The translations under genes were made by a program, and so were the position numbers. From a virus (taxonomy: Duplodnaviria; Caudoviricetes): DNA of 64,000 bases. This document shows, one piece after another, positions 7,788-51,643 of this stretch (position 1 is the first letter of the stretch; each line of letters starts with the position of its first letter). The stretch lies in IMG/VR virus record IMGVR_UViG_3300036647_000024, positions 4,985-68,984 of that record, one strand, 5' to 3'. Below the pieces are notes generated by a model. It searched no databases and was not told the DNA's origin. It was given only the letters and a program-made list of their open reading frames with translations.

Positions 7788-8191
7788 AATACTCCTTGAG
7801 TTTTTACTTGTATTGCACGCATCTTAATAATTCTTTTTGCTTCCATGTGTTGCTGATCCCAGGTCATTTCATGTTTGCCTGCAAGTTTATCAGCTGCAAA
7901 ATCTGCTCTTAGTTCATCATATAATAGTCTACTTCTTCCTCCTCCCCACATTTCAGTACTTTTACCTTCATATTCAGGTAAATTATGATCATTTAAATCT
8001 TGTCTATATTGGTGTGCTGCTTTTACTGCTTTCTTCGCCTCTAGCGGATTTCTTAGATCATATGTATCTCCGTTCATTTCAAGTTTTTCATAACGTCTTG
8101 GGGGAATAGTTAAATCTATTCCTTCATAATGGTCATCATCTCCATCATCTGTGTCTGGAGCATTTCCATGATCAAGGATAAAATCTAACAT
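7784..8191 (-). CDS. hypothetical protein with acidic N-terminus
   Basis: 135-aa ORF overlapping the next start. Confidence 0.6.
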   Translation of the reverse strand: MLDFILDHGNAPDTDDGDDDHYEGIDLTIPPRRYEKLEMNGDTYDLRNPLEAKKAVKAAHQYRQDLNDHNLPEYEGKSTEMWGGGRSRLLYDELRADFAADKLAGKHEMTWDQQHMEAKRIIKMRAIQVKTQGVL

Positions 8192-8396
8192 GCTAATTCA
8201 GGTTGTCTTGATAAATAACAGAAGTTAGCAAATCTTTTATAAAGGCTGATTCCCATCATTAAACCAAAACCAGAGATTGCTGCCCAAAGTACTGATAATA
8301 GAATATGTCCACAAGTAGCTAAGATCGTTGCAATAATTGTCATATAACCTCCTTTAGTTGTATAAATAAAATATTCTACTAAATGTTTTGTTTTTA

Positions 8397-8951
8397 TTAT
8401 TCATTTGGATGAATAGTAACTGATGCTTTTCCTGCTCTAGTTACAGTATTTGTGTCATAGTCTACTTTTACTGGATAAGGATAAGTAGTAACTAATGTTT
8501 CTACATAATGAGGTTCAATTGCTCCAGAAGGCCCAATACACATTACCCAAGTTGCTGATGTATTTGTGCTTGCAAAAATGCCATTTGGTTCTGCTTGTCC
8601 AACGACAACAGCTTCATGCTCAGCAATTCCCTTTATCCATTCTCCCATTAGAGGATTAGTAAGGCTTGTATCATAGGGAAGACCATATCCCATTGAAGGA
8701 CAATCGTATTCGATCTTTCCATCTCTAGATCGCCATACTGTATGAGTGGCTACTTGCTGATTTCTGATATTGTAGAGTTGAATCAGCAAATCTCTTTCGA
8801 GAGAATAGTTATATCCTGGAACTGGTTGAGCCTTTGCATATTGATCTTGTTGTCTTGCAACAGCTTGTTTTTCTGCTTGATTAGCAGACGGCGTCGGCCG
8901 GACGCAGCCAAGCAAACTAATACACATAATTATAGGAATAATAAACTTCAT
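8397..8951 (-). CDS. lipoprotein
   Basis: Signal peptide with lipobox LLG|C. Confidence 0.7.
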   Translation of the reverse strand: MKFIIPIIMCISLLGCVRPTPSANQAEKQAVARQQDQYAKAQPVPGYNYSLERDLLIQLYNIRNQQVATHTVWRSRDGKIEYDCPSMGYGLPYDTSLTNPLMGEWIKGIAEHEAVVVGQAEPNGIFASTNTSATWVMCIGPSGAIEPHYVETLVTTYPYPVKVDYDTNTVTRAGKASVTIHPNE

Positions 8952-9266
8952 TTAATTTCTCCTTTCAAGAGCATTTAGTTGTACTTCAATTCCGTCAAGC
9001 TGAGATTGAAGTATTGCTTTTTCTTCTTCTTTAATTGCTGGAGATCTGAGCTTTGATTGAATCATTGCTTTTTCTGACTGTAGCATAGCTTCTTTGTCTT
9101 TTTGGCCCGCTGAATATTGATAACTATTTTCAAAAACCTTTCTTTCTACGACTGTATTTCCAAGAATTCCTAGGTAATTAAGTCCAGTAAAGATGATTGT
9201 TGAGATGATCAATAACCCAATAACTAGCATGAACCATCTGCTAAATTCCTTTTTGTAATTATCCAT
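8952..9266 (-). CDS. membrane-anchored coiled-coil protein
   Basis: N-terminal TM helix; abuts the lipoprotein gene. Confidence 0.65.
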   Translation of the reverse strand: MDNYKKEFSRWFMLVIGLLIISTIIFTGLNYLGILGNTVVERKVFENSYQYSAGQKDKEAMLQSEKAMIQSKLRSPAIKEEEKAILQSQLDGIEVQLNALERRN

Positions 9267-9296
9267 TCTTTCTCCTTTGTTGTTTAGGGGTGTTGG

Positions 9297-9515
9297 CTAG
9301 TATCCTCTACCACCTCCACCAAGATAAGAGCAAATCATCCCGCCCATGTTCGATGCCATATGACAAGGCTGATTAAACCCACAAACAGGACATGCAATAT
9401 GCCAAGTTGGAGGGTATGTATTATTTATTTTTAATTCGTCTCTCTTTGCACTAAGTACCGAACCGCATTCCCGACACTGAATCTCGATTCTTCCTTCCGA
9501 GATTACCTGTACCAT
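9297..9515 (-). CDS. zinc-ribbon miniprotein
   Basis: CRECG...CPVCG. Confidence 0.55.
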   Translation of the reverse strand: MVQVISEGRIEIQCRECGSVLSAKRDELKINNTYPPTWHIACPVCGFNQPCHMASNMGGMICSYLGGGGRGY

Positions 9516-9683
9516 TTCTCAGCCCTTTCTATAAGAAGGATTTTGGTTTTTTCTAATAATAGTTTTACCTATCTATTCTTTTCCCTTTATTTAATAAAAT
9601 TAGGGCTAGATAAAATTGTTAAATATTTAGTTAAGTGGCCCGTACGACAAATCAACTGAATATCTTAACTATCTAGCCCTTAG

Positions 9684-9755
9684 TAGGCCGTAGGAGAGTC
9701 GAACTCCTGTGACTGGATCGAAAATCCAGTATCCTGACCACTAGATGAACGGCCC
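9684..9755 (-). tRNA. trnE: tRNA-Glu(UUC)
   Basis: Cloverleaf: acceptor GGGCCGT/ACGGCCT, anticodon arm CTGGA-TTTTCGA-TCCAG, T-loop GTTCGACTC; followed by CTA. Confidence 0.92.
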
Positions 9756-9967
9756 ATAAAAACTATATAGATTTGAAGAGCTTATTTTTTTAAAGATAAC
9801 GGTACCATTATCTTCCTGGCTGCTCTTAAACCGACCAGAAGTATTAGTAGGTCTTATCTATATAGTATTAGTACAGGTGGTGGGATTCGAACCCACATCC
9901 CTTTACAGGGAGCAGATTTTCTTACCACTACAACTTTCGCTGCTGTACTTAAAATACATTTGTGGTC

Positions 9968-9996
9968 TGGACTTTCTCTTTACCATATACTATAAT
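9968..9996 (+). promoter_or_regulatory. sigma70-like promoter for the intron-borne HNH gene
   Basis: TGGACT-N17-TATAAT, about 50 nt upstream of the HNH ATG. Confidence 0.65.
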
Positions 9997-10047
9997 AGTA
10001 CTTAGGTACAGGCCGTAAAGTCTCTACACTTTCAATAGGAGAAAACT

Positions 10048-10506
10048 ATGAAACTACGAAAATACACACAAGAAGAACTTACAGAAGCAGTTGTTAATTC
10101 TACTTCTTATCGTCAAGTTTTAAAAAAACTTAATGTTGTTCCTGCTGGTGGTAATTATCAAACACTTAAGAAAGCAATTAAACATTTTGGTCTAGATAGT
10201 ACACATTTCCTTGGTCGACGGTCAAACCTTGGAAAGAAGTTTGGCTATAAGCGAGCAATTGAAGAATATCTTGAGAATCGACAACCAATTCAATCATATA
10301 AGCTTAAGAATCGTCTTTTAAGTGAGAAGATATTTGAAGCTCAATGTATGAATTGTTTAAGAACTACTTGGGAACATCATCTGATTCCGCTTGAGCTTCA
10401 TCATATAGATGGTAATACTCAAAATAATTCTCTAGATAATCTTAAATTGTTATGTCCAAATTGTCATGCTTTAACTGATAATTATCGTGCTAGAAATTCC
10501 TCCTAA
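10048..10506 (+). CDS. HNH endonuclease (putative intron homing endonuclease)
   Basis: CMNC..ELHHIDGN..NN..DNL..LCPNCH motif; SD TAGGAG; the only convincing plus-strand gene in the left arm. Confidence 0.9.
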   Translation: MKLRKYTQEELTEAVVNSTSYRQVLKKLNVVPAGGNYQTLKKAIKHFGLDSTHFLGRRSNLGKKFGYKRAIEEYLENRQPIQSYKLKNRLLSEKIFEAQCMNCLRTTWEHHLIPLELHHIDGNTQNNSLDNLKLLCPNCHALTDNYRARNSS

Positions 10507-10704
10507 AGCTTAGCTCGGGATTGCCATCACCATAATGTGTTAAGGTTTCCCCGAATTTGACCTGATTCGTCTAGAAGTTTCCTTTCTAGATGCTCAATTT
10601 TAGTATAAGTCTGCCGTGTAATCCATTCCACCACACCTGCATACATTTGTTTAGTCAATTACCCAGAAGTCTATATAATACATTCCTGGTTTATAATCTG
10701 TTTG

Positions 10705-10992
10705 TTAAATACATAGCCAAGTTACTATAATTACTATCATTAAAACAAATGACCATCCATAGATGGCATTTCTGTACTTTTGCCATATAGTCTTAGGCTC
10801 AAATAATTTACAATCATTACGCAAGTTTATATATCTACAACGTGATCTACTAAAATCTAAATATGGACCATTGACTGCATCTAGCATCCATGTTCCGTTG
10901 TCTGGATGATGACATTCTGGCGTATTATGATAGTCTTTTCCTACTTCTAGATATGTACAATCTTTACATAATACTTTGTTTGTTTTATTCAT
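10705..10992 (-). CDS. Cys-rich protein with C-terminal TM helix
   Basis: CKDC..CHHP..C..C followed by a hydrophobic tail. Confidence 0.6.
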   Translation of the reverse strand: MNKTNKVLCKDCTYLEVGKDYHNTPECHHPDNGTWMLDAVNGPYLDFSRSRCRYINLRNDCKLFEPKTIWQKYRNAIYGWSFVLMIVIIVTWLCI

Positions 10993-11020
10993 AATTGTAT
11001 ATTTTTTCTTATTAATTTAG

Positions 11021-11094
11021 TCCGCCCCCGAAGATTTGAACTTCGCACCTGTCGCTTATAAGGCGACTGCTCTAACCATCTGAGCTAGAAGCGG
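11021..11094 (-). tRNA. trnI: tRNA-Ile(UAU)
   Basis: Anticodon arm GTCGC-CT-TAT-AA-GCGAC, D arm GCTC/GAGC, T arm CGAAG-TTCAAAT-CTTCG; followed by CTA. Confidence 0.9.
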
Positions 11095-11255
11095 ATAGGT
11101 AGGTTAGTTGTTCTTTTCTAACAAACAAGGACAATCTTTGGCTTTAATCTTAGTTTCTTCTAATGAAGTATAGCTTGTGATTCCAATTATCATTATAAAG
11201 AGGAAGATCATACTTATAATAAATATTGCTTTAAGTTTATCGTCACTATCCATTT

Positions 11256-11438
11256 TTACCTCTCAAGAAATAATTCTTTATGAGTGCAGCTACACCTATG
11301 TTTAGTCATTTTGTCAGCACATTTTTGACAACAACATCCGTGATTATCATATTCATCTTTTCTAGGAGTGTAACGCTTGTTACAATTATTACATTTGTGA
11401 ATTTCTTTTTTCTTTGCCATTTTATTTTTTCTTTCCAA
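11256..11438 (-). CDS. Cys-rich zinc-finger miniprotein
   Basis: CNNC...CCCQKC. Confidence 0.5.
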   Translation of the reverse strand: MERKNKMAKKKEIHKCNNCNKRYTPRKDEYDNHGCCCQKCADKMTKHRCSCTHKELFLER

Positions 11439-11637
11439 TGTTAGCTATCTTTTCTGCTAAATTAATTATGAGATACACAATTGCAAGTATTGTAAGTATT
11501 GGCCAAAGGAACATTGTTAAAAGTGCATCTGCAATATACTTATCATTTGTTTCTGTAATAAGATCAAATCTTATACTTAGAATCATAGCAATAAATCCTA
11601 TAAGGAAATATATAGCTATTCCTATAGCAATATTCAT
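11422..11637 (-). CDS. small membrane protein
   Basis: Two TM helices, FLWP motif. Confidence 0.6.
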   Translation of the reverse strand: MNIAIGIAIYFLIGFIAMILSIRFDLITETNDKYIADALLTMFLWPILTILAIVYLIINLAEKIANIGKKK

Positions 11638-11639
11638 TC

Positions 11640-11882
11640 TTATTTCTCCGTTTGACAGATCTGTCCTTCTGCTAGCTTAGCGAAGTATGTGTTAATTGGT
11701 CCTCCTTGAGCTAGAAAAAACATTAACACAAGTGCTGTGATATAGAGTATATGAGTTAATGGTCTAACTGCATATTTACCTGCTACAAGGCCAAAGGTAA
11801 ATGCAATTAGATTACTCCCTTTCCTCGGCCTGGGATTTTCAGTCATCTTTATTTTCTCCTTCGGGAAGCATCTTTCTTTCAA
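11640..11882 (-). CDS. small membrane protein
   Basis: Hydrophobic segments; start uncertain. Confidence 0.5.
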   Translation of the reverse strand: MKERCFPKEKIKMTENPRPRKGSNLIAFTFGLVAGKYAVRPLTHILYITALVLMFFLAQGGPINTYFAKLAEGQICQTEK

Positions 11883-12684
11883 ATTTGCTGGAAATAGTAT
11901 CTAGCATTCCTTCAATCATATTCTTGATTTTCTTCTGACAGCGGCCGTCATTAAAGAAATAATCAATTGCTACTACAATAAGAAGTGGGAAGATAATATC
12001 TTCATGTTGTTTGTAGTACTCTTTTAGTTTGTCGATCATTGACTTTTTCTCCTTTATAATTATTTTTGTTATCGTGTTTTCCTTATCTGAAATTTTAGTA
12101 TTCTCTTCTTTTAAACTGTATTTATTTAAAACTTCTTTAAGACGTTCGTAGTCTTGATCAGATATTTTTTCGTCTTCTACAGAGTATTTTATATCTTTGT
12201 ACGATCCATCTTTATAGTAAATACGAAATCCACTTCTCTCACTATTATATTTCCATTTCTCTATACAATAAATATTAGTAGTACGAATATATGTTGAACC
12301 AATACTTTCTGGAAGCCATATAAATTTTTGTGCTATCATTTCTCCGCTCTTTAATAATGTATTATTATCTTCTCCTTTTGAATGCTTATCTATATTATTT
12401 TCAGTATATCCTACTAGTCTATTAATTTCTTGTTCATCTTTGAGAAGACTATGTTTTGCTTCGTAATTATCATAGTAGAACAAATTATTACTTTTACTTT
12501 GATCTTTATAGCTTATAATAAGACGTTTTGCATAATTTGGTTGTGCAAAAGCATACTTTACTTCATTTAAATAGATGATACTATGGTTTCTATCATCCAA
12601 AGTATATGTTTCTTCAGAAGGTGATATCTTTGGCAGTTCTAATAATCTTGGTGGAACTGGTGGAACTGGTGGAAATAATGGCAT
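11839..12684 (-). CDS. hypothetical protein with Pro-rich N-terminus and C-terminal TM
   Basis: 281-aa ORF. Confidence 0.65.
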   Translation of the reverse strand: MPLFPPVPPVPPRLLELPKISPSEETYTLDDRNHSIIYLNEVKYAFAQPNYAKRLIISYKDQSKSNNLFYYDNYEAKHSLLKDEQEINRLVGYTENNIDKHSKGEDNNTLLKSGEMIAQKFIWLPESIGSTYIRTTNIYCIEKWKYNSERSGFRIYYKDGSYKDIKYSVEDEKISDQDYERLKEVLNKYSLKEENTKISDKENTITKIIIKEKKSMIDKLKEYYKQHEDIIFPLLIVVAIDYFFNDGRCQKKIKNMIEGMLDTISSKFERKMLPEGENKDD

Positions 12685-13685: not shown

Positions 13686-13735
13686 AATAATATAAGTTTC
13701 TTGACTTGTAGGTTCGATCTTGATAATCTTTTTAG

Positions 13736-13775
13736 TAGGGCAGGAGGGACTCGAACCCCCATCGATCCAATTACG
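13736..13775 (-). pseudogene. orphan tRNA 3' half fused to the HNH stop codon
   Basis: Intact T arm GGGGG-TTCGAGT-CCCTC, acceptor 3' strand CTGCCCT-A, then CTA; no adjacent D arm. Confidence 0.6.
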
Positions 13776-14214
13776 GTGCTCTAAAATCTTCAATGTTTAA
13801 GAAACCATTATGGGTTTCCCAATGACAATTTCTACAAAGAGGAACAACATTTAGTTCTGAGTTTACTTCACCAAGAGTAGCAGTATCACTGAATTTTGAA
13901 ATTGGTTTGATATGACATAATTCTACAAATTTGTCGTAACCACAATTTTTACACCCTTCAGTAGTGAGTTTAGAAAGCCAACTTCTACAAAGGGTTCTTA
14001 CTCTTGCATGAAGCCAAGAAGGGTGTTTGTTCTTAACTGCTAAAGATTTTCTAACTTCTCCTATAGTTGTTTCTTTAGAGAACTCAGATCGTCGAGCACA
14101 AGCACACTTTGTACAAATTTTAGACTCAGGAAGTATCCATTCTTCTCCACAGTCAGAACAGAGCTTTTTATTTTTCTCTCTCCATTCTTTTACACGTTTG
14201 CTTTCTTTTTTCAT
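13771..14214 (-). CDS. free-standing HNH endonuclease
   Basis: N-terminal CSDC..CTKC; CKNCGY..ELCHIKP..N..PLCRNCHWETH. Confidence 0.85.
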   Translation of the reverse strand: MKKESKRVKEWREKNKKLCSDCGEEWILPESKICTKCACARRSEFSKETTIGEVRKSLAVKNKHPSWLHARVRTLCRSWLSKLTTEGCKNCGYDKFVELCHIKPISKFSDTATLGEVNSELNVVPLCRNCHWETHNGFLNIEDFRAP

Positions 14215-14218
14215 TTAG

Positions 14219-14291
14219 CCTCCTCGGCAGGAATCGAACCTGCATAAAACCAGATTAGAAGTCTGGTGTTCATCCATTGAACCACGAGGAG
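14219..14291 (-). tRNA. trnR: tRNA-Arg(UCU)
   Basis: Acceptor CTCCTCG/CGAGGAG, arm CCAGA-CT-TCT-AA-TCTGG, T arm GCAGG-TTCGATT-CCTGC; followed by CTA. Confidence 0.9.
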
Positions 14292-14320
14292 ATAATAATA
14301 TTCTTTGTTACAATTGTCAA
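14292..14320 (-). promoter_or_regulatory. sigma70-like promoter abutting tRNA-Arg
   Basis: TTGACA-N17-TATTAT. Confidence 0.6.
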
Positions 14321-14359
14321 TACATAGAAGTCACGTCCGATACTGCCCCAAAATGTAAA

Positions 14360-14605
14360 TTACTTTATATATTTAAATGACTTTAGAATTTCTAGTTTAG
14401 TTCGAAGATACTTAACATACTCATGTTCCTCTTTTGTTTCTTTATATATTTCTTCTGCATTAAGTTCTATGAGTTTTTCAGGTAATGATTCTAATACAGT
14501 TAAATAAACTGTATCATGAAAGGCTTGTATTCCTGTTGGATCTGCGTCCCATTGATCGTCAATTCCTTCAGGATATTCAATTTCACAAACAATCCTCTTT
14601 TTCAT
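14360..14605 (-). CDS. hypothetical protein
   Basis: 81-aa ORF. Confidence 0.6.
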   Translation of the reverse strand: MKKRIVCEIEYPEGIDDQWDADPTGIQAFHDTVYLTVLESLPEKLIELNAEEIYKETKEEHEYVKYLRTKLEILKSFKYIK

Positions 14606-14606
14606 T

Positions 14607-15047
14607 TTAATCAGTTTCTATAATGATTTGTTTTGGCCACCAAGAAGGCAGTTGATTTTCTAGCCTTGCTGCCATTTTTTCTATTGTAGCGCGGGGAACA
14701 TTATGAATATTTCTTTTAACAGAAGTTTCTACTGAACACTTACAATAGATAAGTTCTACTTGATAATTAAAACTGTATGCAGTTTCTTTATAATTACGCA
14801 TTTCCTTTTCAGAAGTGTTAGTATTATCGACAATAACTAATGGGTTGCTTAGATTAAGAAGTCCTTTAAATTTGTTGTAACAGCATTTATGGGCTTCCCC
14901 AAGTTTATTAACATTAAACTTGTAGCTTCCATCTTTTTGAATCCAGAAGTGATCTGCAGAACAAACAATGGCATCAGGGTAATTATCTTTAATATAAGTA
15001 CTTTTCCCGCTGCCCGGTAAACCTCTCATAATAATTACTTTTTTCAT
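14607..15047 (-). CDS. AAA_33 / polynucleotide-kinase-like P-loop protein
   Basis: IIMRGLPGSGKST Walker A, VIVDNTN, RNIHNVP. Confidence 0.8.
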   Translation of the reverse strand: MKKVIIMRGLPGSGKSTYIKDNYPDAIVCSADHFWIQKDGSYKFNVNKLGEAHKCCYNKFKGLLNLSNPLVIVDNTNTSEKEMRNYKETAYSFNYQVELIYCKCSVETSVKRNIHNVPRATIEKMAARLENQLPSWWPKQIIIETD

Positions 15048-15068
15048 TTTATTCCTTATTATGCTTTA

Positions 15069-15272
15069 TTAGCCTTTTGAATTTTCATAATTATCTATGT
15101 ATTCCTTAACAGTATTATAAAATTCTTCTGTTATCTCTGCTTCACCAGTAATAACATCTACGAGATATTCTGCAAATGTATCTAGTAGTATATCTTTATA
15201 CTTTATTGATAATGAATCATAATAATTATCGAATTCTTTATTTATATCAATTGCCATTTTAGTCCTTATCAA
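15069..15272 (-). CDS. hypothetical acidic protein
   Basis: 67-aa ORF. Confidence 0.5.
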   Translation of the reverse strand: MIRTKMAIDINKEFDNYYDSLSIKYKDILLDTFAEYLVDVITGEAEITEEFYNTVKEYIDNYENSKG

Positions 15273-15612
15273 AAAGAATTTTTTGTAAATCTTTGCAGAT
15301 TGCTTTTACATCGCAGATTTTATCTTGTAAATAGTTAATTCGTATGTCTTTTTCGTCTTTATTGTCGTAGTACATACATCTTGCAGCATTATATGTCTCA
15401 TCATCAAAATAGGATAAATCCCCAGCTCCAGATAATGAGTATCCAATCAATTGGGCAAATTGTATTCGGTCATCATTATCAAAGTTCATCCTGGCGATAT
15501 CGTTCAGATCATGTGGCCCAGCATCTAAGAGCCACTGAACAATTTTGTTTGGCTTAAAACGGATGACTCCGTGTTCATCTTTATATAACGGTTGAATCGG
15601 GTGTTTTTCCAT
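15259..15612 (-). CDS. conserved phage hypothetical protein
   Basis: HPIQP...RFKPNKIV..LLD...QFAQLIGYSLSG; start moved to the ATG behind an AAGGAG SD. Confidence 0.7.
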   Translation of the reverse strand: MEKHPIQPLYKDEHGVIRFKPNKIVQWLLDAGPHDLNDIARMNFDNDDRIQFAQLIGYSLSGAGDLSYFDDETYNAARCMYYDNKDEKDIRINYLQDKICDVKAICKDLQKILFDKD

Positions 15613-15626
15613 TGTTTCTCCTTTTG

Positions 15627-15713
15627 TGGGCAAGATAGGATTTGCACCTATAATCTAGCTGCGCAGGCTAGAACTCCTGCTACGGAGCTGCGTCTACATT
15701 CCGCCACTTGCCT
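15627..15713 (-). tRNA. degenerate class II tRNA, Leu(UAG)-like
   Basis: Leu-type D arm GCGGAATGTAGACGC, long variable arm CTAGC/GCTAG, T arm ATAGG-TGCAAAT-CCTAT; 6-nt anticodon loop GTAGCA and a 1:72 mismatch. Confidence 0.55.
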
Positions 15714-20322: not shown

Positions 20323-20673
20323 TGGTGGAGCTGGAGAGACTCGAACTCTCGTCCTTAAATACTCATTCTATTGATCGTTACATGTTTAGTTGTTTCAAGC
20401 TACTCTAGTTAATCCAACAACAAGATATTATAGAGTTTTTTCTCTATTTTGTTTCGCTGAAAAATATAGAGAATCTTAATCAGCTATTCTGTTAAAATGA
20501 TGCTTCTTTTACTTACACAGACAATCAGTAAAGAAACAGATCAGGCAGCAGCCTGAACGGGTACGTAACTGTCTTCGGCAGTTATCTTTGAGTACTCGTT
20601 TTAACTCGCAGAATACTCAATGCGAGACATGCACAATAAACTTCTTGTACCTAAGTCGAAACCATTCAGCCCC
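20323..20673 (-). ncRNA. ssrA: tmRNA; tag (A)AEDSYVPVQAAA at 20541-20579
   Basis: 5' GGGGCTGAATGGTTTCGAC, 3' GGACGAGAGTTCGAGTCTCTCCAGCTCCACCA with G3-U70; ATAACT precedes the resume codon GCC. Confidence 0.95.
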
Positions 20674-20718
20674 ATATTTTTTAATTATATTACTTTTTAC
20701 TAGTTTTTAGAACTTTAG

Positions 20719-20916
20719 TTGACCAGGCAGGATTCGAACCTGCATTACTGACATCCTCTCTCCACTGTTAGTATACGTTGCCTTGCGATTGAGTGTGAGC
20801 ACCACTCACGTGCGCAATCTGTTCCACCGAAACGAAATTCCAGGCGGCACTCATACTATATGGATAATGTCATTTGTCATTATGACTTTCAGCGTCTACC
20901 ATTCCGCCACTGGTCA
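20719..20916 (-). ncRNA. 198-nt tRNA-like RNA with a branched insert in place of the anticodon arm
   Basis: Acceptor TGACCAG/CTGGTCA-A, Leu-type D arm, perfect T arm GCAGG-TTCGAAT-CCTGC and nested internal helices. Confidence 0.8.
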
Positions 20917-42758: not shown

Positions 42759-43535
42759 ATGGGTGGAGAAGGAAGCGGAAAACCAAAGGGTGAATTACTT
42801 ACTCTTGATGGCAAAGAATTAATAGAAGGAAAACTATCTAAAACAGATTTCTTTAACTTCTTAGGTATGGATTTAGCAGATTATTCTGGGATTACAATGA
42901 CTCCAGAACAAGCTTTAGCATTCAAGAACCAAGTTGTTCGTATGACCCATGGTGTTTCGGCCGCTATTCCACTAAAATGTTATGGTGCTTCTTGTAATAA
43001 CTGGACATGTGTATTTCATAGTATAGGAACTTATCCTCTTGGTCTTCCATGTATTCTAGAACATAAAATGATACAAACTCTTACAAAATCATATATGGAA
43101 GACATTGGTGTAGATCCTGAAAGCTTATCTGAAATGACTCTTGTTAATAAGTTAGTTGAAGCTGATATAATTGACTACAGAGCCAATATAGGCTTATCTG
43201 GTGCACGAGATCCAGAAGATGGTACATTGCTTAAGACTTCTATTATGGAGACAGAGAAGGGCAGTTCCGAAACTGTAAACCTTCATCCATTATTAGAGGC
43301 CAAAGAAAAAGCTAATACAATGAGGATTAAGATTCTTGAGGCATTAGCAACAACTAGAAGAGAGAAATATAAGAAAGCTGCTGCTCTTAAAACAAGTGAA
43401 GATACAGATGCTTCTAAAGCATTATCTGATTTGAGAGAAAGAGTTATGTCTCTTGTTTCTAATTCAACACCAGAAGAGAGACTTAAGAAAGCAGAAGATA
43501 CTATTGATGCCGAGTGGAGGGATAGTGACCTTTAG
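42759..43535 (+). CDS. hypothetical protein, candidate terminase small subunit
   Basis: 258 aa, helical; upstream of the head module; function inferred from position only. Confidence 0.35.
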   Translation: MGGEGSGKPKGELLTLDGKELIEGKLSKTDFFNFLGMDLADYSGITMTPEQALAFKNQVVRMTHGVSAAIPLKCYGASCNNWTCVFHSIGTYPLGLPCILEHKMIQTLTKSYMEDIGVDPESLSEMTLVNKLVEADIIDYRANIGLSGARDPEDGTLLKTSIMETEKGSSETVNLHPLLEAKEKANTMRIKILEALATTRREKYKKAAALKTSEDTDASKALSDLRERVMSLVSNSTPEERLKKAEDTIDAEWRDSDL

Positions 43536-46500
43536 TGGCAAAAATATCCGACAAAGATCTTCAAAGATTTATTGATGATATAAATCAATCATCTGGTGGT
43601 GTTAAAACACCAGAACCTGCCTTTCAAAGATATAAAAAACAATTTCTTAGAGAACTAGATTTCGATGTTCTTCAGAAGTTTAGTCCAGAACAATTAATTG
43701 ATTCAGCTCGTACACAAGAAGAATTATTTATTCTTGGAGAACATTTAGAAGAAAAATGGGGACGTGACCACTATTGGTGGAAGAAGTATCACGAGAAACG
43801 TATTGAATTAGGTCATTCTCCTAGTTTCTATGGAATGGTTGATGATTCTGTTTCTGGAAAGAGACGAGGATTATGGGGAGTTCCTGTAAGTGCTCAAGAA
43901 TACATAAGAAATGAACATTTAGCTGGTCCTCAAGCAGTAGCTGTTAATAGAAGTTTAGTTCCTGCTACCTGGGAACAAGTATCTGGAAATAAAGTATTAT
44001 TTAATAAAGTTAACACTCCTGATGGTATTGTTTTAAGAAAATGGACCGGACTTAAGCCGCCAGTTCTAAAATCTAATACTTCTAGAAATGCTCTTATATT
44101 TGATATTGAAACTACAGGATTAATAGGAAAAGATAACTCAAATATTATCTCTGTTGGCTTATTAAACACTCAAACAGGCAAGTCTTCTGGTATATATGCT
44201 GATTTTAATCAATCTATTAAATATTCGGCTGCAATAGAAAACAAAATAATTCCACAATGGAAATCTGCTGTTCAAGCTTCTAGAATAACTCCAGTTACAG
44301 AAAGAGAGTTAGTAGAAGAAACAATATCTAGTTTCTCTAAAGCTGTATCTAGTGGACAAGCATTAATGGGATATAACATTAAAGAGTTTGATATCCCAAA
44401 AATATATGAAACTGCTAAAAAATATGGTCTTCACAAACAGTTTGAGAAAATAGTTAAACAGGCTGAAATAGTAGACGTAGCAGAACATGCTGTTCCTTTT
44501 CTGTCTAAACATTTAGGCAATAAATTTGTTGGTTGGCAAGAGTCAGAATTAGGATTAAAGCCTCTAGGTTGGCAGCTTGGTATTGTAGCTGAGTCTCTTG
44601 GTTATAATGTTAAGAATGCACATGAGGCTAAAGCTGATGTTGCTATGACAAGGTTTGTCTGGGACGCGCTTCAAAATGAAGAAAAAGCATCTGCTATATT
44701 TAAAGAGTCTGTTGCGTCGGGCAAATACGAACAATTAATTAAAGCTCATACAGGAAAAGAACTTGTTCCTGTAGCAAAGGCTAGCAAGTGGGCTAGTTTT
44801 ACAAAACCACTATTAGCATCAGAAGCTGATTATGCTAGACCATTTACAGAACATCTAGCTAAAATATATCCAAATGTTACCAAAGTAGCAGAGCCAGAAG
44901 TAGCTAATGCTGTTAAGTCTTTTATGGGCAAAAAGCTTCCATTTATTAATAAACATATTAAAGGAGCTACAGTTGGTAAGGCTTTAAGATATACAGGATA
45001 TTTTGCTTTATCTAATTTACTCTGGCCGGGAGATTTTTGGAGAGCAGCTACAGATACAGCTGCTTTTGATTTAGCTTCTTATGCTGCCAGAGGAAAAGGG
45101 AACTGGAAATATGTTGCTGGTATAGCTGCTTTAGGCGCTGCTAATACACTATATTCTGCACTTGAAAGTAAAGACAGTTTAGATTTATCTGGTTTTAGTG
45201 GAAAATTTAATTCTATTCCACCAGAAGTAATAGAACAAAATAAAGAAGGTTTACCCAATTCTTTAATGGGCGTTACTATTTCACCAGATATTCTATCTTT
45301 TAGAGAAAAGATTCTTGATAATCCAGAAGAAAAACAAGCACTAGAAGATAGAATTAAAGCTGCTCAAGCAAAAGCACAAGAAAACATTGATACTTTTAGA
45401 TCTAGCGACTTAAAACAAACAGATTTATCATCTATTGAGGGACTTAATCAAAAAAACCAAAATCTTAGAGAAGTTGATCTAAGTAACTTTAAATTAGAAG
45501 TAGAAGATGCCGATACTATCTTCCTTCATAGAAAAGGTATAAATCTTGATAATCCAATACAAATTAGACTTTCAGGTATAGATGCACCTGAAGTTGCTAG
45601 TCATGAACTTGATCCTCTAGAAGAAGTACGTATATTTCAAAATCAGCCTGGCGGAGAAGAAGCTACCAAAGCTTTAGAGGCAATATTAGCCAATCAAAAG
45701 AATATAAGACTTATTGTTGACGCGAAAAATAAAACATATGGCAGAAGTTTAGGTGTTCTTATTGGCGATGAAGATAGGAATATTGCTTATGATCTATTAT
45801 CTATTGGTGCAGTTTCAGCTTTGCCATTTGGTCCTTCTTCTGAAGATGTAGTTTCTAGAACGCCAGCTCAACAAATCGAAACAAGAGCCAGACAAGAAGA
45901 AGCTGGAATGTGGAGCTTGGCTAGATATAAAGCAATTCATAGAGCAACAGAAGCAATAGGAAATCCTCTTACATATAATACTTTAACAGAAAAAACTAAA
46001 TTAGGAGAAAATCTTAATCTCGGCGCGTATGCATCATTCCTTGAAGGCTTAGGAACAGAAAACAGGCAATTAACTTTAGAAGAAACAGTATTGTCTTCTA
46101 GATTAGGTAAGATTCTTAAAAACCAATATAGTGCAGCTGCATATCAACATAGATTTAGTGGAAAAGACGATAATTATAATACTATTGAAGGTTTACACCC
46201 ACAAAGTAATGGTCCAGGTGCACAAAAAGTTCAAGAAAATACAGAATTTGGTAGTGGTTGGGATCCAATTAGAGCAATGGCCCGTACAATATACAAAGGA
46301 TTAGATGAACAAGCTGCTTTTGATAAATTAAGAAGATCTTCTAAGTGGATGAGTGCATTAGAAGGTGCTAAAGAAATTAAACAGTTAAGTTATGGATCAT
46401 ATGGAACTACATTTTTAATGGAAGGAAAAATTGGTAAACAGTCATTTAATTTTATTAAGAAGATACCAGAAACTCCTTTATATAATGATTTTATACCAAA

Positions 46501-47122
46501 TCTTCCAAATAAATCTAAACGTCTAGCTGCTTTAAAAGAAGAAGCATCAATAATGCCATTAGTAGAAAATAGAATTGCTCCATCTTTATATGGCTTTAAA
46601 GGTGAATCTTTATACATGGAGTTAATGCCAGGAAAAACAGTACATGAATTAATTCAAGAAGGAACTCCTATTCCTAAAAAACAAATAGAAGATACAATAC
46701 GTAACGAGATTAGTAAAATATCAAAATCTGGAATAGTAAATACAGATATTCATACTGGAAATATTATGTTTGACCAAAGTACACAGAATGTATCATGGAT
46801 TGACTGGGGAATGGGTAAAACCATATCATCTGGAACTGATTATCAAAAAATGATCACAAATATGGAAAGTAAACTTATAACTCCAATACAACAATCTTCT
46901 GCTAAAATAAGCCAAAAAGAAAGTATAATTTCTGAAAATTGGGGAGAAGTAATGCCTAAAACTCCAATAAGAGTTAAATCCAGAATGTCTACTTCTAATA
47001 GAAAACAAGCTCTTAAACGCATGAAAAGATTCAATAAACTTTCAACTGATGCTGTTGGTATAGGATTAAAATCTGCTCATAATGCAGGAAGAAAACATAC
47101 AACATTTTCAACATTAGGATAA
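43535..47122 (+). CDS. multidomain protein: DEDDh exonuclease + SNase nuclease + protein-kinase-like domain
   Basis: FDIETTG/YNIKEFD/HEAKAD; DADTI..IRLSGIDAPE..YGRSLG; YGSYG..K..MELMPG..DIHTGN..IDWG. Confidence 0.8.
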   Translation: MAKISDKDLQRFIDDINQSSGGVKTPEPAFQRYKKQFLRELDFDVLQKFSPEQLIDSARTQEELFILGEHLEEKWGRDHYWWKKYHEKRIELGHSPSFYGMVDDSVSGKRRGLWGVPVSAQEYIRNEHLAGPQAVAVNRSLVPATWEQVSGNKVLFNKVNTPDGIVLRKWTGLKPPVLKSNTSRNALIFDIETTGLIGKDNSNIISVGLLNTQTGKSSGIYADFNQSIKYSAAIENKIIPQWKSAVQASRITPVTERELVEETISSFSKAVSSGQALMGYNIKEFDIPKIYETAKKYGLHKQFEKIVKQAEIVDVAEHAVPFLSKHLGNKFVGWQESELGLKPLGWQLGIVAESLGYNVKNAHEAKADVAMTRFVWDALQNEEKASAIFKESVASGKYEQLIKAHTGKELVPVAKASKWASFTKPLLASEADYARPFTEHLAKIYPNVTKVAEPEVANAVKSFMGKKLPFINKHIKGATVGKALRYTGYFALSNLLWPGDFWRAATDTAAFDLASYAARGKGNWKYVAGIAALGAANTLYSALESKDSLDLSGFSGKFNSIPPEVIEQNKEGLPNSLMGVTISPDILSFREKILDNPEEKQALEDRIKAAQAKAQENIDTFRSSDLKQTDLSSIEGLNQKNQNLREVDLSNFKLEVEDADTIFLHRKGINLDNPIQIRLSGIDAPEVASHELDPLEEVRIFQNQPGGEEATKALEAILANQKNIRLIVDAKNKTYGRSLGVLIGDEDRNIAYDLLSIGAVSALPFGPSSEDVVSRTPAQQIETRARQEEAGMWSLARYKAIHRATEAIGNPLTYNTLTEKTKLGENLNLGAYASFLEGLGTENRQLTLEETVLSSRLGKILKNQYSAAAYQHRFSGKDDNYNTIEGLHPQSNGPGAQKVQENTEFGSGWDPIRAMARTIYKGLDEQAAFDKLRRSSKWMSALEGAKEIKQLSYGSYGTTFLMEGKIGKQSFNFIKKIPETPLYNDFIPNLPNKSKRLAALKEEASIMPLVENRIAPSLYGFKGESLYMELMPGKTVHELIQEGTPIPKKQIEDTIRNEISKISKSGIVNTDIHTGNIMFDQSTQNVSWIDWGMGKTISSGTDYQKMITNMESKLITPIQQSSAKISQKESIISENWGEVMPKTPIRVKSRMSTSNRKQALKRMKRFNKLSTDAVGIGLKSAHNAGRKHTTFSTLG

Positions 47123-47621: not shown

Positions 47622-48422
47622 GTGCCACGGTGGTCTGATAATCCTAACTATAACTATCTGAAAAATAAGAGACTGGAATTTGCTGCTGATGTGAACACAT
47701 TTGGCAAGCAATACTTTGCTTCTAATTTTTCTAGAGGTGGTTTTGCAGCTACTGCATTTGCCGCTACTCCAGGAGAAGCATTTAGATCTGCTTTTCGGAA
47801 TAATGTTGAGTATGGTGGAGATATCCATTTGGCCCGCATGAAAGCAATGGCACAAGCAGATCCATCACTTTTAGAGTCTAATGCTTGGAAGAATCAATTT
47901 AGAAAAGTTTATGGAGCTAATAGATATGGACAAAGAGGATTTTCTAAAGCAGCTTCAGGATTTTCAGGTGTATTAGGGAAAGCCCTTCCTATTGGCTTTT
48001 TTGCCTTGCCAGCATTTACAACTCCCGGTGGATTAGAAGAAAAAGCTAGAGCGACCCTTGGTGGTGCAGCAAGTTACATTGGATGGGAACTTGGTTCCAA
48101 GTTTGGAATGGGAACAGGAGCAGCTATTGGTAGTATAATTCCTGGATTTGGTACAGCAATTGGTGCTGGAGTTGGATATATTGTTGGTGGTTTCGCTGGA
48201 GCAATAGGATTTGATGAAGGTACTCAAGCTTTAACACGAATTCCAGATGCTATGGTCAAAAGAGAAAGAGAAAGAAGAAGATTAGATTGGGTTGGAAGCA
48301 AAAATGCTTTTCAGACTCAATCAGCTGCTACTATGAGACAACAATCTATGCTTGCAATGAGTAGAGGGTTAATGAATGCTAGATCTGCACTTGGCAGAGA
48401 AGCAGTAATGATGCATCGATAA
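47622..48422 (+). CDS. Gly/Ala-rich glycine-zipper protein
   Basis: GTGAAIGSIIPGFGTAIGAGVGYIVGG. Confidence 0.65.
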   Translation: MPRWSDNPNYNYLKNKRLEFAADVNTFGKQYFASNFSRGGFAATAFAATPGEAFRSAFRNNVEYGGDIHLARMKAMAQADPSLLESNAWKNQFRKVYGANRYGQRGFSKAASGFSGVLGKALPIGFFALPAFTTPGGLEEKARATLGGAASYIGWELGSKFGMGTGAAIGSIIPGFGTAIGAGVGYIVGGFAGAIGFDEGTQALTRIPDAMVKRERERRRLDWVGSKNAFQTQSAATMRQQSMLAMSRGLMNARSALGREAVMMHR

Positions 48423-51400
48423 TGACTAATGAAACAGACAACTTAGAAGATCTAAGAAAAATAGATTTACCTTTTGATATAGACAATGTAGATCCTCAAT
48501 GTATAAAGTGTGTTCGTAATCAGCTTAAGAAATATGAAAAATATGCTTTCAAAGATGAAACTATGGCTACAGGTAAATTCCTTGTGCCGTGTACTGGAAT
48601 TCCAAAACATATTATAGATCCAACTGTTAAGTCTTCTTTAACTGATGATCAACTAGAAGATTATATGTCAGTTATTGACCCGATTACATTTGCAAAGCGG
48701 TTTATTCAAGACAACAAAGGGAATCCTTGGATTGCAAGAGATCCACATCAAGTTGAAGTGCTAAAGTGTACTTCTCGTAGACGGGTATTACGTATAAGCA
48801 GGAGGACCGGAAAAACGGCTTTGGTAGTTGTTGATATTATATTTAATGCATATACTAACAAGAAGAAAAAAATTCTTGTCATTGGCCCACAAAAGAAGCA
48901 TACACAGGAAGTCTTTAACAGGATTAAAGAGATTATATATGCAAATCCAATATTATCAGATTCTGTTGTGACAGATGTTACAGCACCACACCCAAAGATT
49001 GTATTTAAGAACGGAACAGAAATTAGAGGTTTTGCTGGCGGTGCAAAAGGAAAAGGAGAAGGTTTAGCTGTTCGTGGAGAAGATGCCGATTTAATTTATT
49101 GTTTTCCAAAAGGAACTCTTGTTTCTACTTCTGTATTTGGGGTTCGTCCAATTGAAAGTTTACGGTTAAAAGATACTATTTTAGGTGGAAATCAAGAAGG
49201 AATACAGATTGGTGAAATAACAAACCTACTGCTTAATAAAGGACAAACAATGACTTTGTCTACCGCATTAGGAAAAATTACATGTACACCTGATCATCCT
49301 TTGTTTAATGGCAAAGAAGATATTCCTGCAAAACAAGCTGATAGTGTTATATTTTCTCTAGCTCACCAGAATCTTACTTTCAGTAAAGAAGTTATATTAG
49401 CTAGACTGCTTGGATTTGTGTATGGAGATGGATGGGCTAGCCAAAAATCAATTGGTTTTTCTGGACAACCTGAAGATTTAGAACAAGTCATAGAAGACCT
49501 TTCTTTACTAGGAGACATTCGACATAAAGTTTCATCTAGAACTACAGAAAATAAGAAAAGAAACATTAAAGGATTTGGAGCAGAATTTCATTCTCAATAT
49601 CTATATCCTATATTAAAAGATTTCCTTCCACAAGGCAAAAAAGTGTATCAACCTATTCGAGTACCAAAACATATTATGAATGGACTTGATTATTTAAAAA
49701 CTTCATTTTTGTCAGGATTATTTTCTGCAGAGGCAACTTCTTTTAAGTTTCAGAAAAATGGAATAACTCCACGTTCTATAGAATTAAAGATGTGTAGTTC
49801 TAAAGAAAATTGGATACGCGATTGGTTTAAAGATATTTCAACTTTATTGGCTGATATTGGTATTGATTATTCTTTAAAGTTTAAATATTTTTTTGACGAA
49901 TATAATAAAGAATCACGATATTATGGCATAATCAAAGTTTTTGGAGAAGAAAGCAATCTTCTTAAATATGCCAATAAGATTGGATATTGTTACAATTATC
50001 AGAAAACTATTGATATGAATTCATTTTTAGCATATTCACATTATAAAAAAATATGGAAACAAAAATGCTGGAGAAGAAATCGTATTATTAGAAAATATGA
50101 AAATTGTTCTTCATCTGAAGCAGCAAGACGAACAAAAATAAACAAAGCAACTATTAAATATCATAGAAGTCATGATATTTATAACAATCTATATTCTGAA
50201 AACCTTTTAACTTGTAAAGAATATATTAACAAAATTACTTGGAAAGAAAATTTTGTTGTTTTGCCTATTTACAAGCAAAGTACAAGATATAACCAGGAAG
50301 AGCCTTTAGTAGATGTATATAATTTAACATCAACAGCTAGTAATAGATATTTTGCATCTGGTATTTTTACTCATAATTGTGAAGAAGCTGCGTATATAGA
50401 AGAAGATTCATTTAAAAGTGTTATTTCACCAATTCTGTATACAACACCTGAAGTTAAGCTAACAGCGTTTTCTACTCCAGCCCCATTTAGAAATACTTTT
50501 TATCAATATTGTAAAGAAAATCCTATTTATAAAGAATATCATTATAACTATAAAGTATTGCCTTGGTGGAAACAAATCGAGCAAGAAAGAGAGAATCTAA
50601 CAGAAGATCAGTGGAAAACTGAGTACCTAGCAGAATTTCCAGAGGGTGATGCAGGTGTATATAAGCCTTCTTATATTGATAGAGCATTAAAAACATATTT
50701 GTATTCAGAAATACAACCACATATGATGTGGAGATATGTTATGGGTGTAGATTGGAATGAAAAACATGGTGCTGAAATTGTCGTTATTGGATACAATCCT
50801 CTAACAAGGAGATATCAAGTTGTTGAAGCTGAATGTATTGAATCTTCTGAATTTACACAACTTAAAAGTGTTGATAAAGTTATTGAGCTAAACAAAAAGT
50901 GGAGACCATCTTTTGTATATATTGATTCTGGAAATGGCTCTACTAATGCGGAATTATTAAGAAAAACAGCACAAGAGCATTCAATGAACAATGGTGATTT
51001 TGCTACTGCTAAATTACTAATGACACTTAGAAAATATGATTCAGGTGCTAGTATTACAACTAGAGATCCTATTACAAATGAAAAGTTAAAAAAACCTGCT
51101 AAATCTTTTATGGTTAATGCTGCTGTAAGAATGTTTGAACAAGGACTTATTAATATTTCTACACATGATCATATATTAGAAAAACAACTCAGAAACTATA
51201 TTATTGAACGTATGACCCCAACTGGAAATCCTGTATATGGTCTTCAAGAACCAAAAGTATTAGATCATAGACTAGATGCTTTTAACCTTGCATGTGTAGG
51301 TTTTCAACTTGAATTTAATGATTTACATGTAGTACAACATGTTAACAGAGCTGGTGCAGCATTAGACCCAAGAATTATACAAACAAATGAAAAAGGTCAA

Positions 51401-51643
51401 AAAGAGCTTATTAAAAATGTACCAGAACAAAGAAGTATGGACACTATAAAAACTCCACTAGAAGCTATTGCTTTTCCATATTTACCAGGGAGAGTAGATA
51501 CACTAGAAGGTATTAGAACAAATCGTCTTGGCTGGGATACAGACCAAGAAGAACTTGAAAAAGCAAAATTTATACAAAGAAGACGTTCTCATGATAAAAT
51601 TCGTGGTAGGTTTAGCAAAAAACCAAAGAGAACTAATATTTAG
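48422..51643 (+). CDS. terL: terminase large subunit, intein-containing
   Basis: SRRTGKT Walker A, Walker B split by the intein, STP coupling motif, MGVDW nuclease motif, DHRLDA. Confidence 0.92.
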   Translation: MTNETDNLEDLRKIDLPFDIDNVDPQCIKCVRNQLKKYEKYAFKDETMATGKFLVPCTGIPKHIIDPTVKSSLTDDQLEDYMSVIDPITFAKRFIQDNKGNPWIARDPHQVEVLKCTSRRRVLRISRRTGKTALVVVDIIFNAYTNKKKKILVIGPQKKHTQEVFNRIKEIIYANPILSDSVVTDVTAPHPKIVFKNGTEIRGFAGGAKGKGEGLAVRGEDADLIYCFPKGTLVSTSVFGVRPIESLRLKDTILGGNQEGIQIGEITNLLLNKGQTMTLSTALGKITCTPDHPLFNGKEDIPAKQADSVIFSLAHQNLTFSKEVILARLLGFVYGDGWASQKSIGFSGQPEDLEQVIEDLSLLGDIRHKVSSRTTENKKRNIKGFGAEFHSQYLYPILKDFLPQGKKVYQPIRVPKHIMNGLDYLKTSFLSGLFSAEATSFKFQKNGITPRSIELKMCSSKENWIRDWFKDISTLLADIGIDYSLKFKYFFDEYNKESRYYGIIKVFGEESNLLKYANKIGYCYNYQKTIDMNSFLAYSHYKKIWKQKCWRRNRIIRKYENCSSSEAARRTKINKATIKYHRSHDIYNNLYSENLLTCKEYINKITWKENFVVLPIYKQSTRYNQEEPLVDVYNLTSTASNRYFASGIFTHNCEEAAYIEEDSFKSVISPILYTTPEVKLTAFSTPAPFRNTFYQYCKENPIYKEYHYNYKVLPWWKQIEQERENLTEDQWKTEYLAEFPEGDAGVYKPSYIDRALKTYLYSEIQPHMMWRYVMGVDWNEKHGAEIVVIGYNPLTRRYQVVEAECIESSEFTQLKSVDKVIELNKKWRPSFVYIDSGNGSTNAELLRKTAQEHSMNNGDFATAKLLMTLRKYDSGASITTRDPITNEKLKKPAKSFMVNAAVRMFEQGLINISTHDHILEKQLRNYIIERMTPTGNPVYGLQEPKVLDHRLDAFNLACVGFQLEFNDLHVVQHVNRAGAALDPRIIQTNEKGQKELIKNVPEQRSMDTIKTPLEAIAFPYLPGRVDTLEGIRTNRLGWDTDQEELEKAKFIQRRRSHDKIRGRFSKKPKRTNI
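49100..50377 (+). mobile_element. intein with LAGLIDADG homing endonuclease (426 aa)
   Basis: Starts CFPKGT, ends FTHN followed by Cys; LLGFVYGDG and FLSGLFSAE blocks. Confidence 0.93.

Follow-up and report, generated by a model that had tools for sequence, protein, structure and literature searches.

A phage tRNA-Leu(UAA) gene split by a predicted group I intron with an HNH endonuclease gene on the opposite strand

The split tRNA-Leu(UAA) gene and its intron

The 64,000-nucleotide (nt) stretch of viral DNA analysed here (the window) covers most of a linear IMG/VR virus record of 68,984 bases (IMGVR_UViG_3300036647_000024), whose completeness was estimated at 57%. On the minus strand of the window, positions 10640-9872 form a transfer RNA (tRNA) gene, tRNA-Leu(UAA), in two exons, and a gene for an HNH endonuclease lies on the opposite strand within the intervening sequence. 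The whole split gene (9872-10640) gives a mature tRNA of 84 nt including A73, with no encoded CCA. Its 5' exon (10607-10640) ends with U34 (...GGCAGACTT), its 3' exon (9872-9920) begins with A35 (AAAATCTGC...), and between them lies a 686-nt intron of the group I, IC3 type (9921-10606), whose last base is a G (the omega-G, 9921). An earlier note, made by a model from the letters of the window, had proposed a tRNA-Leu(UAA) gene split at this site. ARAGORN agreed when introns were allowed (option -i), calling tRNA-Leu(taa) c[9871,10640] and placing an intron of 686 nt between positions 34 and 35 (U34/A35); the exon and intron coordinates of the note were right, the sole difference being one extra 3' base (9871) in the ARAGORN call. 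Both the default mode of ARAGORN and the Rfam tRNA model missed the gene. The joined exons fold as a type II tRNA with a 7-base-pair acceptor stem containing G1-U72, a 3-base-pair D stem, the anticodon stem GCAGA/TCTGC, a long variable arm, a T arm, and A73.

The whole window gene was aligned with 24 relatives, 22 lacking and 2 bearing an open reading frame (ORF) in the intron (25 sequences, alignment A1). A structure comprising the paired regions P1, P2, P3, P4, P5, P5a, P6, P7, P8, P9.0, P9, and P9a plus the tRNA helices was written over this alignment, and pairs were counted. Standard pairs filled 94.5% of cells, compared with 75.0% in shuffled alignments, and 63 of the 87 proposed pairs changed on both sides. 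The covariation score was 0.483 against 0.162 in shuffles, with 0 of 500 shuffles reaching the observed value, and it fell to 0.06-0.11 when pairing partners were slid by 1-3 columns. The tRNA helices were 98-100% paired with covariation; the anticodon stem, which bridges the intron, was 97.6% paired, and four of its pairs covaried.

All intron helices lie on the minus strand. In P1 (10593-10609), exon CTT and the first intron A (10609-10606) pair with the internal guide TGAG (10596-10593), and the U34-G wobble at the 5' splice site, formed with the G of TGAG, was present in all 25 sequences. P2 (10570-10590) is a clean hairpin in the window, closed by a GAAA tetraloop. The 5' strand of P3, CAGGTC (10559-10564), pairs with GGCCTG (10014-10009) in a pseudoknot with P7; P3 was 100% paired, with five of its six pairs covarying. 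The P4-P5 domain (10514-10555) contains P4 (10555-10549 with 10520-10514), P5 (10545-10544 with 10525-10524), and P5a, and P4 was 100% paired with a switch from G-C to U-A in 10 sequences. The 5' strand of P7, GAGAC (10024-10020, with a bulged A), is followed by the 3' strand of P3 (together 10009-10024), while the 3' strand of P7, GTCC (9969-9972), lies inside the invariant AGTCCAGAC; P7 was 100% paired and two pairs covaried. The P8 hairpin (9981-10008) has a CCTAAG/TATGG receptor-like internal loop and an AT-rich terminal loop, and was 98% paired. P9.0 (9966-9962 with 9928-9924) encloses P9 (9958-9944) and P9a with a GAAA loop (9942-9931), the whole spanning 9924-9966; P9.0 was 98% and P9a 100% paired, both with covariation. 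The P/Q and R/S elements recognised in the earlier note correspond to P4 and P7 and covary with the rest of the core across the 25 sequences.

Rfam at its gathering thresholds detected no intron in the window; for RF00028 this cut-off is 50 bits, a detection rule rather than a biological definition. The model matched the 5' half of the window intron alone at 23.4 bits (E-value 1.3e-3) and the 3' half as a 10.1-bit fragment, apparently because the ORF insert of about 460-480 nt breaks the model. Ten alignable ORF-less homologues scored 56.8-69.3 bits, while another (L002), an unannotated ORF-less tRNA-Leu(UAA) intron in the public phage genome LR756501, gave no RF00028 report at E<=0.01. Covariance-model support for the core, which the note had proposed as a check, is thus good though indirect, coming from the ten homologues and from the pair counts for P1 to P9. 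On these pairings, the window intron belongs to group I, and to its small bacterial tRNA type (IC3-like), with predicted catalysis.

The HNH gene in the P6 loop

The HNH endonuclease gene (10048-10506, plus strand; 152 amino acids) lies antisense to the intron, in the loop of P6. The 5' arm of P6, CTTTAGGAG (10500-10508, minus strand), overlaps, on the plus strand, the end of the gene (its final codons and TAA stop), and the plus-strand complement of the 3' arm, CTCCTATTG (10033-10041, minus strand), contains the AGGAG ribosome-binding site (10037-10041), 6 nt upstream of the ATG. In the window, P6 consists of one C-G pair, two U-U mismatches, and six Watson-Crick pairs (TAGGAG/CTCCTA), and across A1 it was 92% paired. 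The earlier claims that the gene is looped out of P6 between Q and R, and that the P6 arms (10508-10500 and 10041-10033) are the antisense of its stop region and ribosome-binding site, were thus borne out. The insertion point in the P6 loop was identical in the three antisense-ORF introns of A1 (the window, L033, and L053). A resemblance by eye between the flanks of the inserted ORF and the exon junction was too weak and was set aside.

The protein matched phrog_10822 'HNH endonuclease' with an E-value of 5e-43 and scored slightly under the Pfam cut-offs for HNH_3 (23.1 against 24.8) and HNH (19.8 against 21.4). In an alignment of 32 homologues (A2), residues C100, C103, H119, N127, N131, C136, C139, and H140, which make up the HNH motif and two CxxC pairs, were invariant. 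The AlphaFold model built from A2 had a mean predicted local distance difference test (pLDDT) score of 88.6 and a predicted template modelling (pTM) score of 0.55, and showed an N-terminal three-helix bundle (8-46), a linker, and a C-terminal part with strands 116-119 and 132-135 and helix 137-141; this last part is a beta-beta-alpha-metal domain with the two CxxC pairs. Foldseek matches were weak (best E-value 0.03), linking the C-terminal part to HNH nucleases (McrA, Gme, GVE2) and the N-terminal part to winged-helix regulators, and a PDB sequence search with the protein found no solved relative. From its sequence and model, the product reads as an intact two-domain enzyme with predicted activity.

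All neighbouring genes lie on the minus strand, so the HNH gene needs a promoter of its own. A consensus scan found a promoter-like site on the plus strand, TGGACT-17-TATAAT (9968-9996; 10 of 12 consensus positions), about 50 nt upstream of the ATG and antisense to the P7 3' strand, J8-7, and P8. TGGACT was present in all eight other antisense members, because AGTCCA is invariant in the core. A terminator-like hairpin with a T-rich tail (10568-10602, plus strand), antisense to P2 and P1, was likewise found as a consensus match only. We treat both signals as candidates and their roles as hypotheses.

Relatives, mobility, and phage context

IMG/VR was searched with the HNH protein, and the context of about 105 homologues was classed strand by strand, with the core motifs setting the orientation. 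In most of these loci the HNH gene lay in or beside a tRNA-Leu(UAA) gene. It was free-standing and in tandem with a tRNA gene in about 50 loci, and in 29 it stood free and convergent to a tRNA gene that has an intron, 3-9 nt from the 3' end of that gene; it lay inside a tRNA intron on the sense strand in 16 loci and on the antisense strand in 4. Most of the convergent tRNA genes were for Leu(UAA) and some for Phe(GAA) or Lys(UUU); their ORF-less introns were about 196 nt long. For the intron-less neighbours, the best-strand call of ARAGORN made five convergent, a strand call that was ambiguous between two runs. The homologues in L164, L173, and L192 (the first two being IMG/VR 3300045988 contigs) contained 3-4 in-frame stops in ORFs that otherwise aligned well; these are either pseudogenes or genes of phages that read a stop codon as sense.

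In the HNH tree, all antisense-oriented members fell into one clade with support of 94/91 (25 free-standing convergent genes, four intron-borne antisense genes, and that of locus L123), within which the window protein grouped with those of L123 and L053 (97/64). L123 holds at 2320-2980 the nearest HNH homologue (61% identity) together with a remnant of the 3' part of the intron, upstream of an intron-less tRNA-Leu(UAA) gene, and appears to be a copy of the element that has been rearranged or has decayed.

The core word TCAAATTCGGNGAAACC matched more than 118 IMG/VR contigs, in which ARAGORN found about 60 tRNA-Leu(UAA) genes interrupted at the U34/A35 site by introns of about 198 nt, as well as introns in Met, Arg, Thr, Ser, Asn, and Glu tRNAs. 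In bacteria it matched more than 120 genome contigs, which come from many phyla; 120 of these were fetched, and 59 of them carried tRNA-Leu(UAA) introns. Five of the bacterial contigs had an antisense HNH gene (54-59% identity) and two a sense HNH gene. The antisense-in-P6 layout recurs in three phage contigs (L015, L033, and L053) and in five contigs from bacterial metagenome-assembled genomes (L226, L231, L246, L292, and L316). Seven intron-bearing phage tRNAs with a UAA anticodon (L125, L137, L157, L108, L051, L183, and L033; A1 columns 795-810) lacked the long variable arm expected of tRNA-Leu. In the Klebsiella phage Muenster (MT708547), an unannotated tRNA(CAU) gene with a group I intron (RF00028, 104.1 bits) was found at about 302826-303136 (L001 1414-1724), with the annotated tRNA-Ser gene on one side and the tRNA-Asn gene on the other; the P4-P5 core of this intron was 92% identical to that of the window, and four other Klebsiella phage records matched the same core stretch at 90-92%.

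The nine antisense-HNH introns, including that of the window, had inserts of 477-494 nt and shared GAGCTAA, where most other introns have GAGCCAA. Eight of the nine formed one clade in the intron-core tree (support 0.865) together with 12 ORF-less introns, and the window intron was sister to that of L033 (0.973), whereas the introns beside free-standing convergent HNH genes fell elsewhere in this tree. The uniform inserts and clustered introns indicate that the backwards layout was inherited in an intron-plus-HNH lineage, with loss of the ORF along the way. On these sequences, the backwards orientation is a lineage trait of the HNH clade and no accident of one genome. Both trees were unrooted and built on short alignments.

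Contigs of four DNA-type sequencing runs were compared over 8000-12500, two from the source sample (X1 and X2, rhizosphere) and two from different samples of one marine-sediment study (X3 and X4), the DNA type of X4 being only guessed. The contigs of X1, X2, and X3 carried the tRNA, intron, and HNH gene without breaks. A 211-nt contig of X4 (depth 3.65) joined 9919 to 10606 and skipped 686 nt, which, with one ambiguous base, is exactly the predicted intron; it matched 49 nt of the 3' exon with one difference and then 95 nt, from the 5' exon into the upstream spacer, with six differences. On this sequence, the contig is an intron-less allele in a relative about 94% identical to the window; it would be a spliced product if that run were RNA, and either way the intron boundaries are confirmed. 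Among the differences listed between X3 and the window, at least 6 fell in 9886-10640 and at least 32 in 10641-11285, so that the intron and HNH gene appear, provisionally, about six-fold less diverged than the flanks. Between X3 and X1, the differences listed in the HNH gene were two synonymous changes and R149K. Homing is expected to leave an element that is present or absent precisely at its splice sites and that is younger than the DNA around it. The sequences accord with this and fit an intron-HNH element that is mobile and has recently been so.

The earlier note had suggested a search of related phages for intron-less and ORF-less alleles, and both kinds were found: X4 lacks exactly the 686 nt, and ORF-less introns of about 198 nt are common. 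Its proposal of a mobile intron-endonuclease unit gains support from the X4 allele and from the tie of the HNH family to tRNA-Leu genes. The closest relatives of the HNH protein (54-62% identity), however, stand free next to tRNA genes, of which five or six are intron-less, so the enzyme may have a target other than the exon junction. Among its possible targets, the intron-less anticodon site leads but is not the only one.

The window has a G+C content of 34% and encodes a large terminase subunit, a portal protein, a major head protein, and a DNA polymerase exonuclease, along with a minus-strand cluster of tRNA genes and a transfer-messenger RNA (tmRNA). UUA makes up 33.5% of the Leu codons in 30 long ORFs, so the phage could plausibly benefit from a tRNA that reads this codon. 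The phage-encoded tmRNA (20323-20673, minus strand; Rfam 141.7 bits) specifies the tag peptide AEDSYVPVQAAA. Directly upstream of it, a tRNA-like gene (20718-20916, minus strand) has a good acceptor stem, D arm, and T arm with about 126 extra central nt; ARAGORN calls it tRNA-Met(cat) with a 126-nt intron, which is too short for group I and had no Rfam match. A type II tRNA-like gene at 15626-15713 (minus strand) has an irregular anticodon loop of 6 or 8 nt and was labelled tRNA-??? by ARAGORN. A further ARAGORN call, a tRNA-His with a 1838-nt intron (13735-15665), was rejected as spurious, as it overlaps other tRNA genes and lacks a group I signal. A search for syntenic phages with the neighbouring 95-amino-acid ORF found none. 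In the large terminase subunit (48422-51640, plus strand; 1073 amino acids), the matches to terminase fall at residues 84-225 and 653-957, on either side of a LAGLIDADG_3 domain at 427-521, an insert that looks like an intein with a homing endonuclease and would be a second mobile element of the same phage. A 1195-amino-acid protein (43535-47119, plus strand) combines an RNase H-like/DNA polymerase exonuclease domain, a staphylococcal-nuclease domain, and a kinase-like C-terminus.

Interpretation and comparison with known systems

We consider it probable that the locus is a functional phage tRNA-Leu(UAA) gene whose IC3-type group I intron, inserted at U34/A35, took up a homing-endonuclease gene in reverse orientation. 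The minus-strand transcript of the tRNA cluster would fold with the anticodon stem and P1 holding the exons together and the antisense ORF of about 460 nt extruded as the P6 loop. Guanosine-initiated self-splicing would then yield tRNA-Leu(UAA) with the predicted junction GACTT|AAAATC (joined exons ...GGCAGACUU|AAAAUCUGC...). The HNH gene would have a plus-strand transcript of its own, perhaps started at the promoter-like site antisense to P7 and P8. Its product would combine a small DNA-binding domain with an HNH domain stabilised by zinc. In co-infecting relatives it would nick or cut tRNA-Leu(UAA) alleles that lack the intron, and repair would copy the intron and the HNH gene into them. We infer splicing, expression of the antisense gene, the HNH cut site, homing, and the dependence of UUA decoding on splicing from the sequences.

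Several observations weigh against this reading. P2 was only 64.5% paired across A1, with register shifts between sequences, the P6 of the window contains the two U-U mismatches, and the RF00028 score of the window intron lies below the cut-off. A good -10 box at the right spacing occurs in the window only and is not conserved in the eight other antisense members, and no RNA runs bearing on splicing or antisense transcription were listed for this sequence. The intron-less allele is represented by the single low-depth contig of X4, a run of guessed DNA type, and the contrast in divergence is drawn from the listed differences only. The closest HNH relatives, as described above, are free-standing, some of them beside intron-less tRNA genes.

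This last point is central to the main rival explanation, which we regard as possible though unlikely, namely that the intron splices while the HNH gene is semi-autonomous and has another target, such as ORF-less introns in P6 or a site in or next to tRNA genes. The P6 loop would then be a harmless landing place, and intron and gene would be loosely linked, as in trans or collaborative homing. Such a history would suit the closest relatives, which are free-standing and convergent, 0-9 nt from the 3' ends of Leu(UAA), Phe(GAA), and Lys(UUU) tRNA genes that contain ORF-less introns, as well as those beside intron-less tRNA-Leu genes, the L123 locus with its 3' intron remnant upstream of an intron-less tRNA-Leu gene, and the ORF-less introns interspersed among the antisense-HNH introns in the core tree. 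It does not sit well with the X4 allele, from which intron and gene are missing together, exactly at the splice sites. The uniform insert size and P6 insertion point of the nine members, whose introns mostly cluster, also fit co-inheritance as one unit.

A more elaborate arrangement, which we think quite unlikely, is a two-strand integrated module in which antisense transcription would compete with tRNA maturation. The two would act as an inbuilt switch that decides, in an infected cell, between making the tRNA and spreading the element. The conserved P7/P8 sequence would supply the endonuclease promoter on its reverse strand, the P6 arms would double as ribosome-binding site and stop codon, with pairing in the mRNA masking the ribosome-binding site, and the antisense of P2 and P1 would end the HNH transcript. 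The HNH family as a whole may also preserve every stage from a free-standing endonuclease to a composite mobile intron.

Very unlikely, in our view, is a decaying element, in which the intron splices and the tRNA works while the HNH gene is silent or inactive and is heading for loss in a cycle of gain, decay, and loss. The lack of a conserved promoter in the relatives, the Pfam scores slightly below the cut-offs, the interrupted HNH match in L226, and the frequency of ORF-less descendants would be compatible with decay. The gene itself argues otherwise, as its 152 codons are open, all invariant catalytic and zinc residues are kept, the structure model is confident, and the X1 and X3 copies show, among the differences listed, three changes in the gene, two of them synonymous and one conservative. 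That the locus is an artefact of assembly, or a tRNA pseudogene that is dead, is scarcely credible: the locus does come from a single metagenomic contig of an incomplete record (57% by estimate), but contigs of three runs from two studies cover both intron-exon junctions unbroken, every tRNA and ribozyme helix is intact, and the layout recurs in at least eight other contigs.

Taken with its many relatives, the window locus indicates that group I introns in tRNA genes are common in phages, in contrast to reviews that place phage group I introns in protein-coding genes and present tRNA-Leu introns as ORF-less cyanobacterial or plastid relics. Standard tRNA finders and Rfam thresholds miss such split genes, and phage tRNA sets are therefore under-counted, as in the Klebsiella phage Muenster. 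One HNH lineage is found in three states (free-standing, intron-borne in sense orientation, and intron-borne backwards). These states form a natural series in which to test how ribozymes and endonuclease genes combine into composite mobile elements, and how a gene can be expressed from the antisense strand of a catalytic RNA.

The literature was searched for a phage tRNA-Leu intron with an antisense HNH gene, and no description was found; searches for group I introns in phage tRNAs and for antisense endonuclease genes in bacterial or phage introns also returned none, apart from the unclassified introns of Lak megaphages. The tRNAs of these phages contain 'enigmatic' introns with presence/absence variants between genomes, perhaps common in large phages, according to an excerpt of the preprint (bioRxiv 10.1101/356790). 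They concern other tRNAs and other phages, and that excerpt gives neither a group I class nor an endonuclease link. A 2014 review of bacterial group I introns describes phage introns as tending toward protein-coding genes, and the words 'antisense' and 'opposite' are absent from it (PMC3984707).

The window intron resembles the classical tRNA-Leu(UAA) intron of cyanobacteria and plastids (Kuhsel et al. 1990, as cited in passages of PMC3984707 and PMC11835236) in its host gene, the U34/A35 site, the IC3-type core, and the anticodon stem that holds the exons. The classical introns lack an ORF and occur in cyanobacteria and plastids, whereas the window intron is in a phage and carries an HNH gene; the comparison was made by site and core type. 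With the IC3 intron of the Azoarcus tRNA-Ile(CAU) gene (structures cited in PMC3984707; PMC13168695), it shares a small size, a short P1, GAAA tetraloops, and receptor-like motifs in P5/P8. The Azoarcus intron differs in interrupting another tRNA, lacking an ORF, and having a bacterial host. The core words TCAAATTCGGNGAAACC and GTGTAGAGACT appear nearly identical to those of that intron, a resemblance that we take as a lead.

An endonuclease-bearing tRNA intron is found in the Synechocystis tRNA-fMet gene, which encodes I-SspI (Bonocora and Shub 2001, via a passage of PMC3984707). Its host is a bacterium, whereas the window intron belongs to a phage. The I-SspI gene reportedly lies on the sense strand and is not of the HNH type. 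To our knowledge, the known endonuclease-bearing tRNA introns and phage HNH introns all have their genes on the sense strand.

Phage group I introns with HNH enzymes, such as I-PfoP3I (PMC3428280; reviewed in PMC3984707), likewise combine a self-splicing phage intron with an HNH homing or nicking enzyme, but those introns interrupt protein-coding genes. Collaborative (trans) homing, in which a free-standing endonuclease acts with an ORF-less intron, has been proposed as a route to composite mobile introns (PMC3984707, Figure 5b, section 12). The free-standing HNH relatives beside ORF-less intron-bearing tRNA genes resemble this situation, while the window gene is already inside its intron. The antisense layout itself has a counterpart in group I introns of nuclear ribosomal DNA (rDNA), for example L2066, which carry antisense His-Cys box endonuclease genes (PMC9548176). 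There too, the endonuclease gene lies opposite the ribozyme strand and is looped out of a peripheral helix, but the setting is eukaryotic nuclear rDNA, where the enzyme is of the His-Cys box family and its gene contains spliceosomal introns, as against a phage tRNA, an HNH enzyme, and bacterial signals here. With only the antisense layout in common, the window element is an analogue of these rDNA introns and not one of their members.

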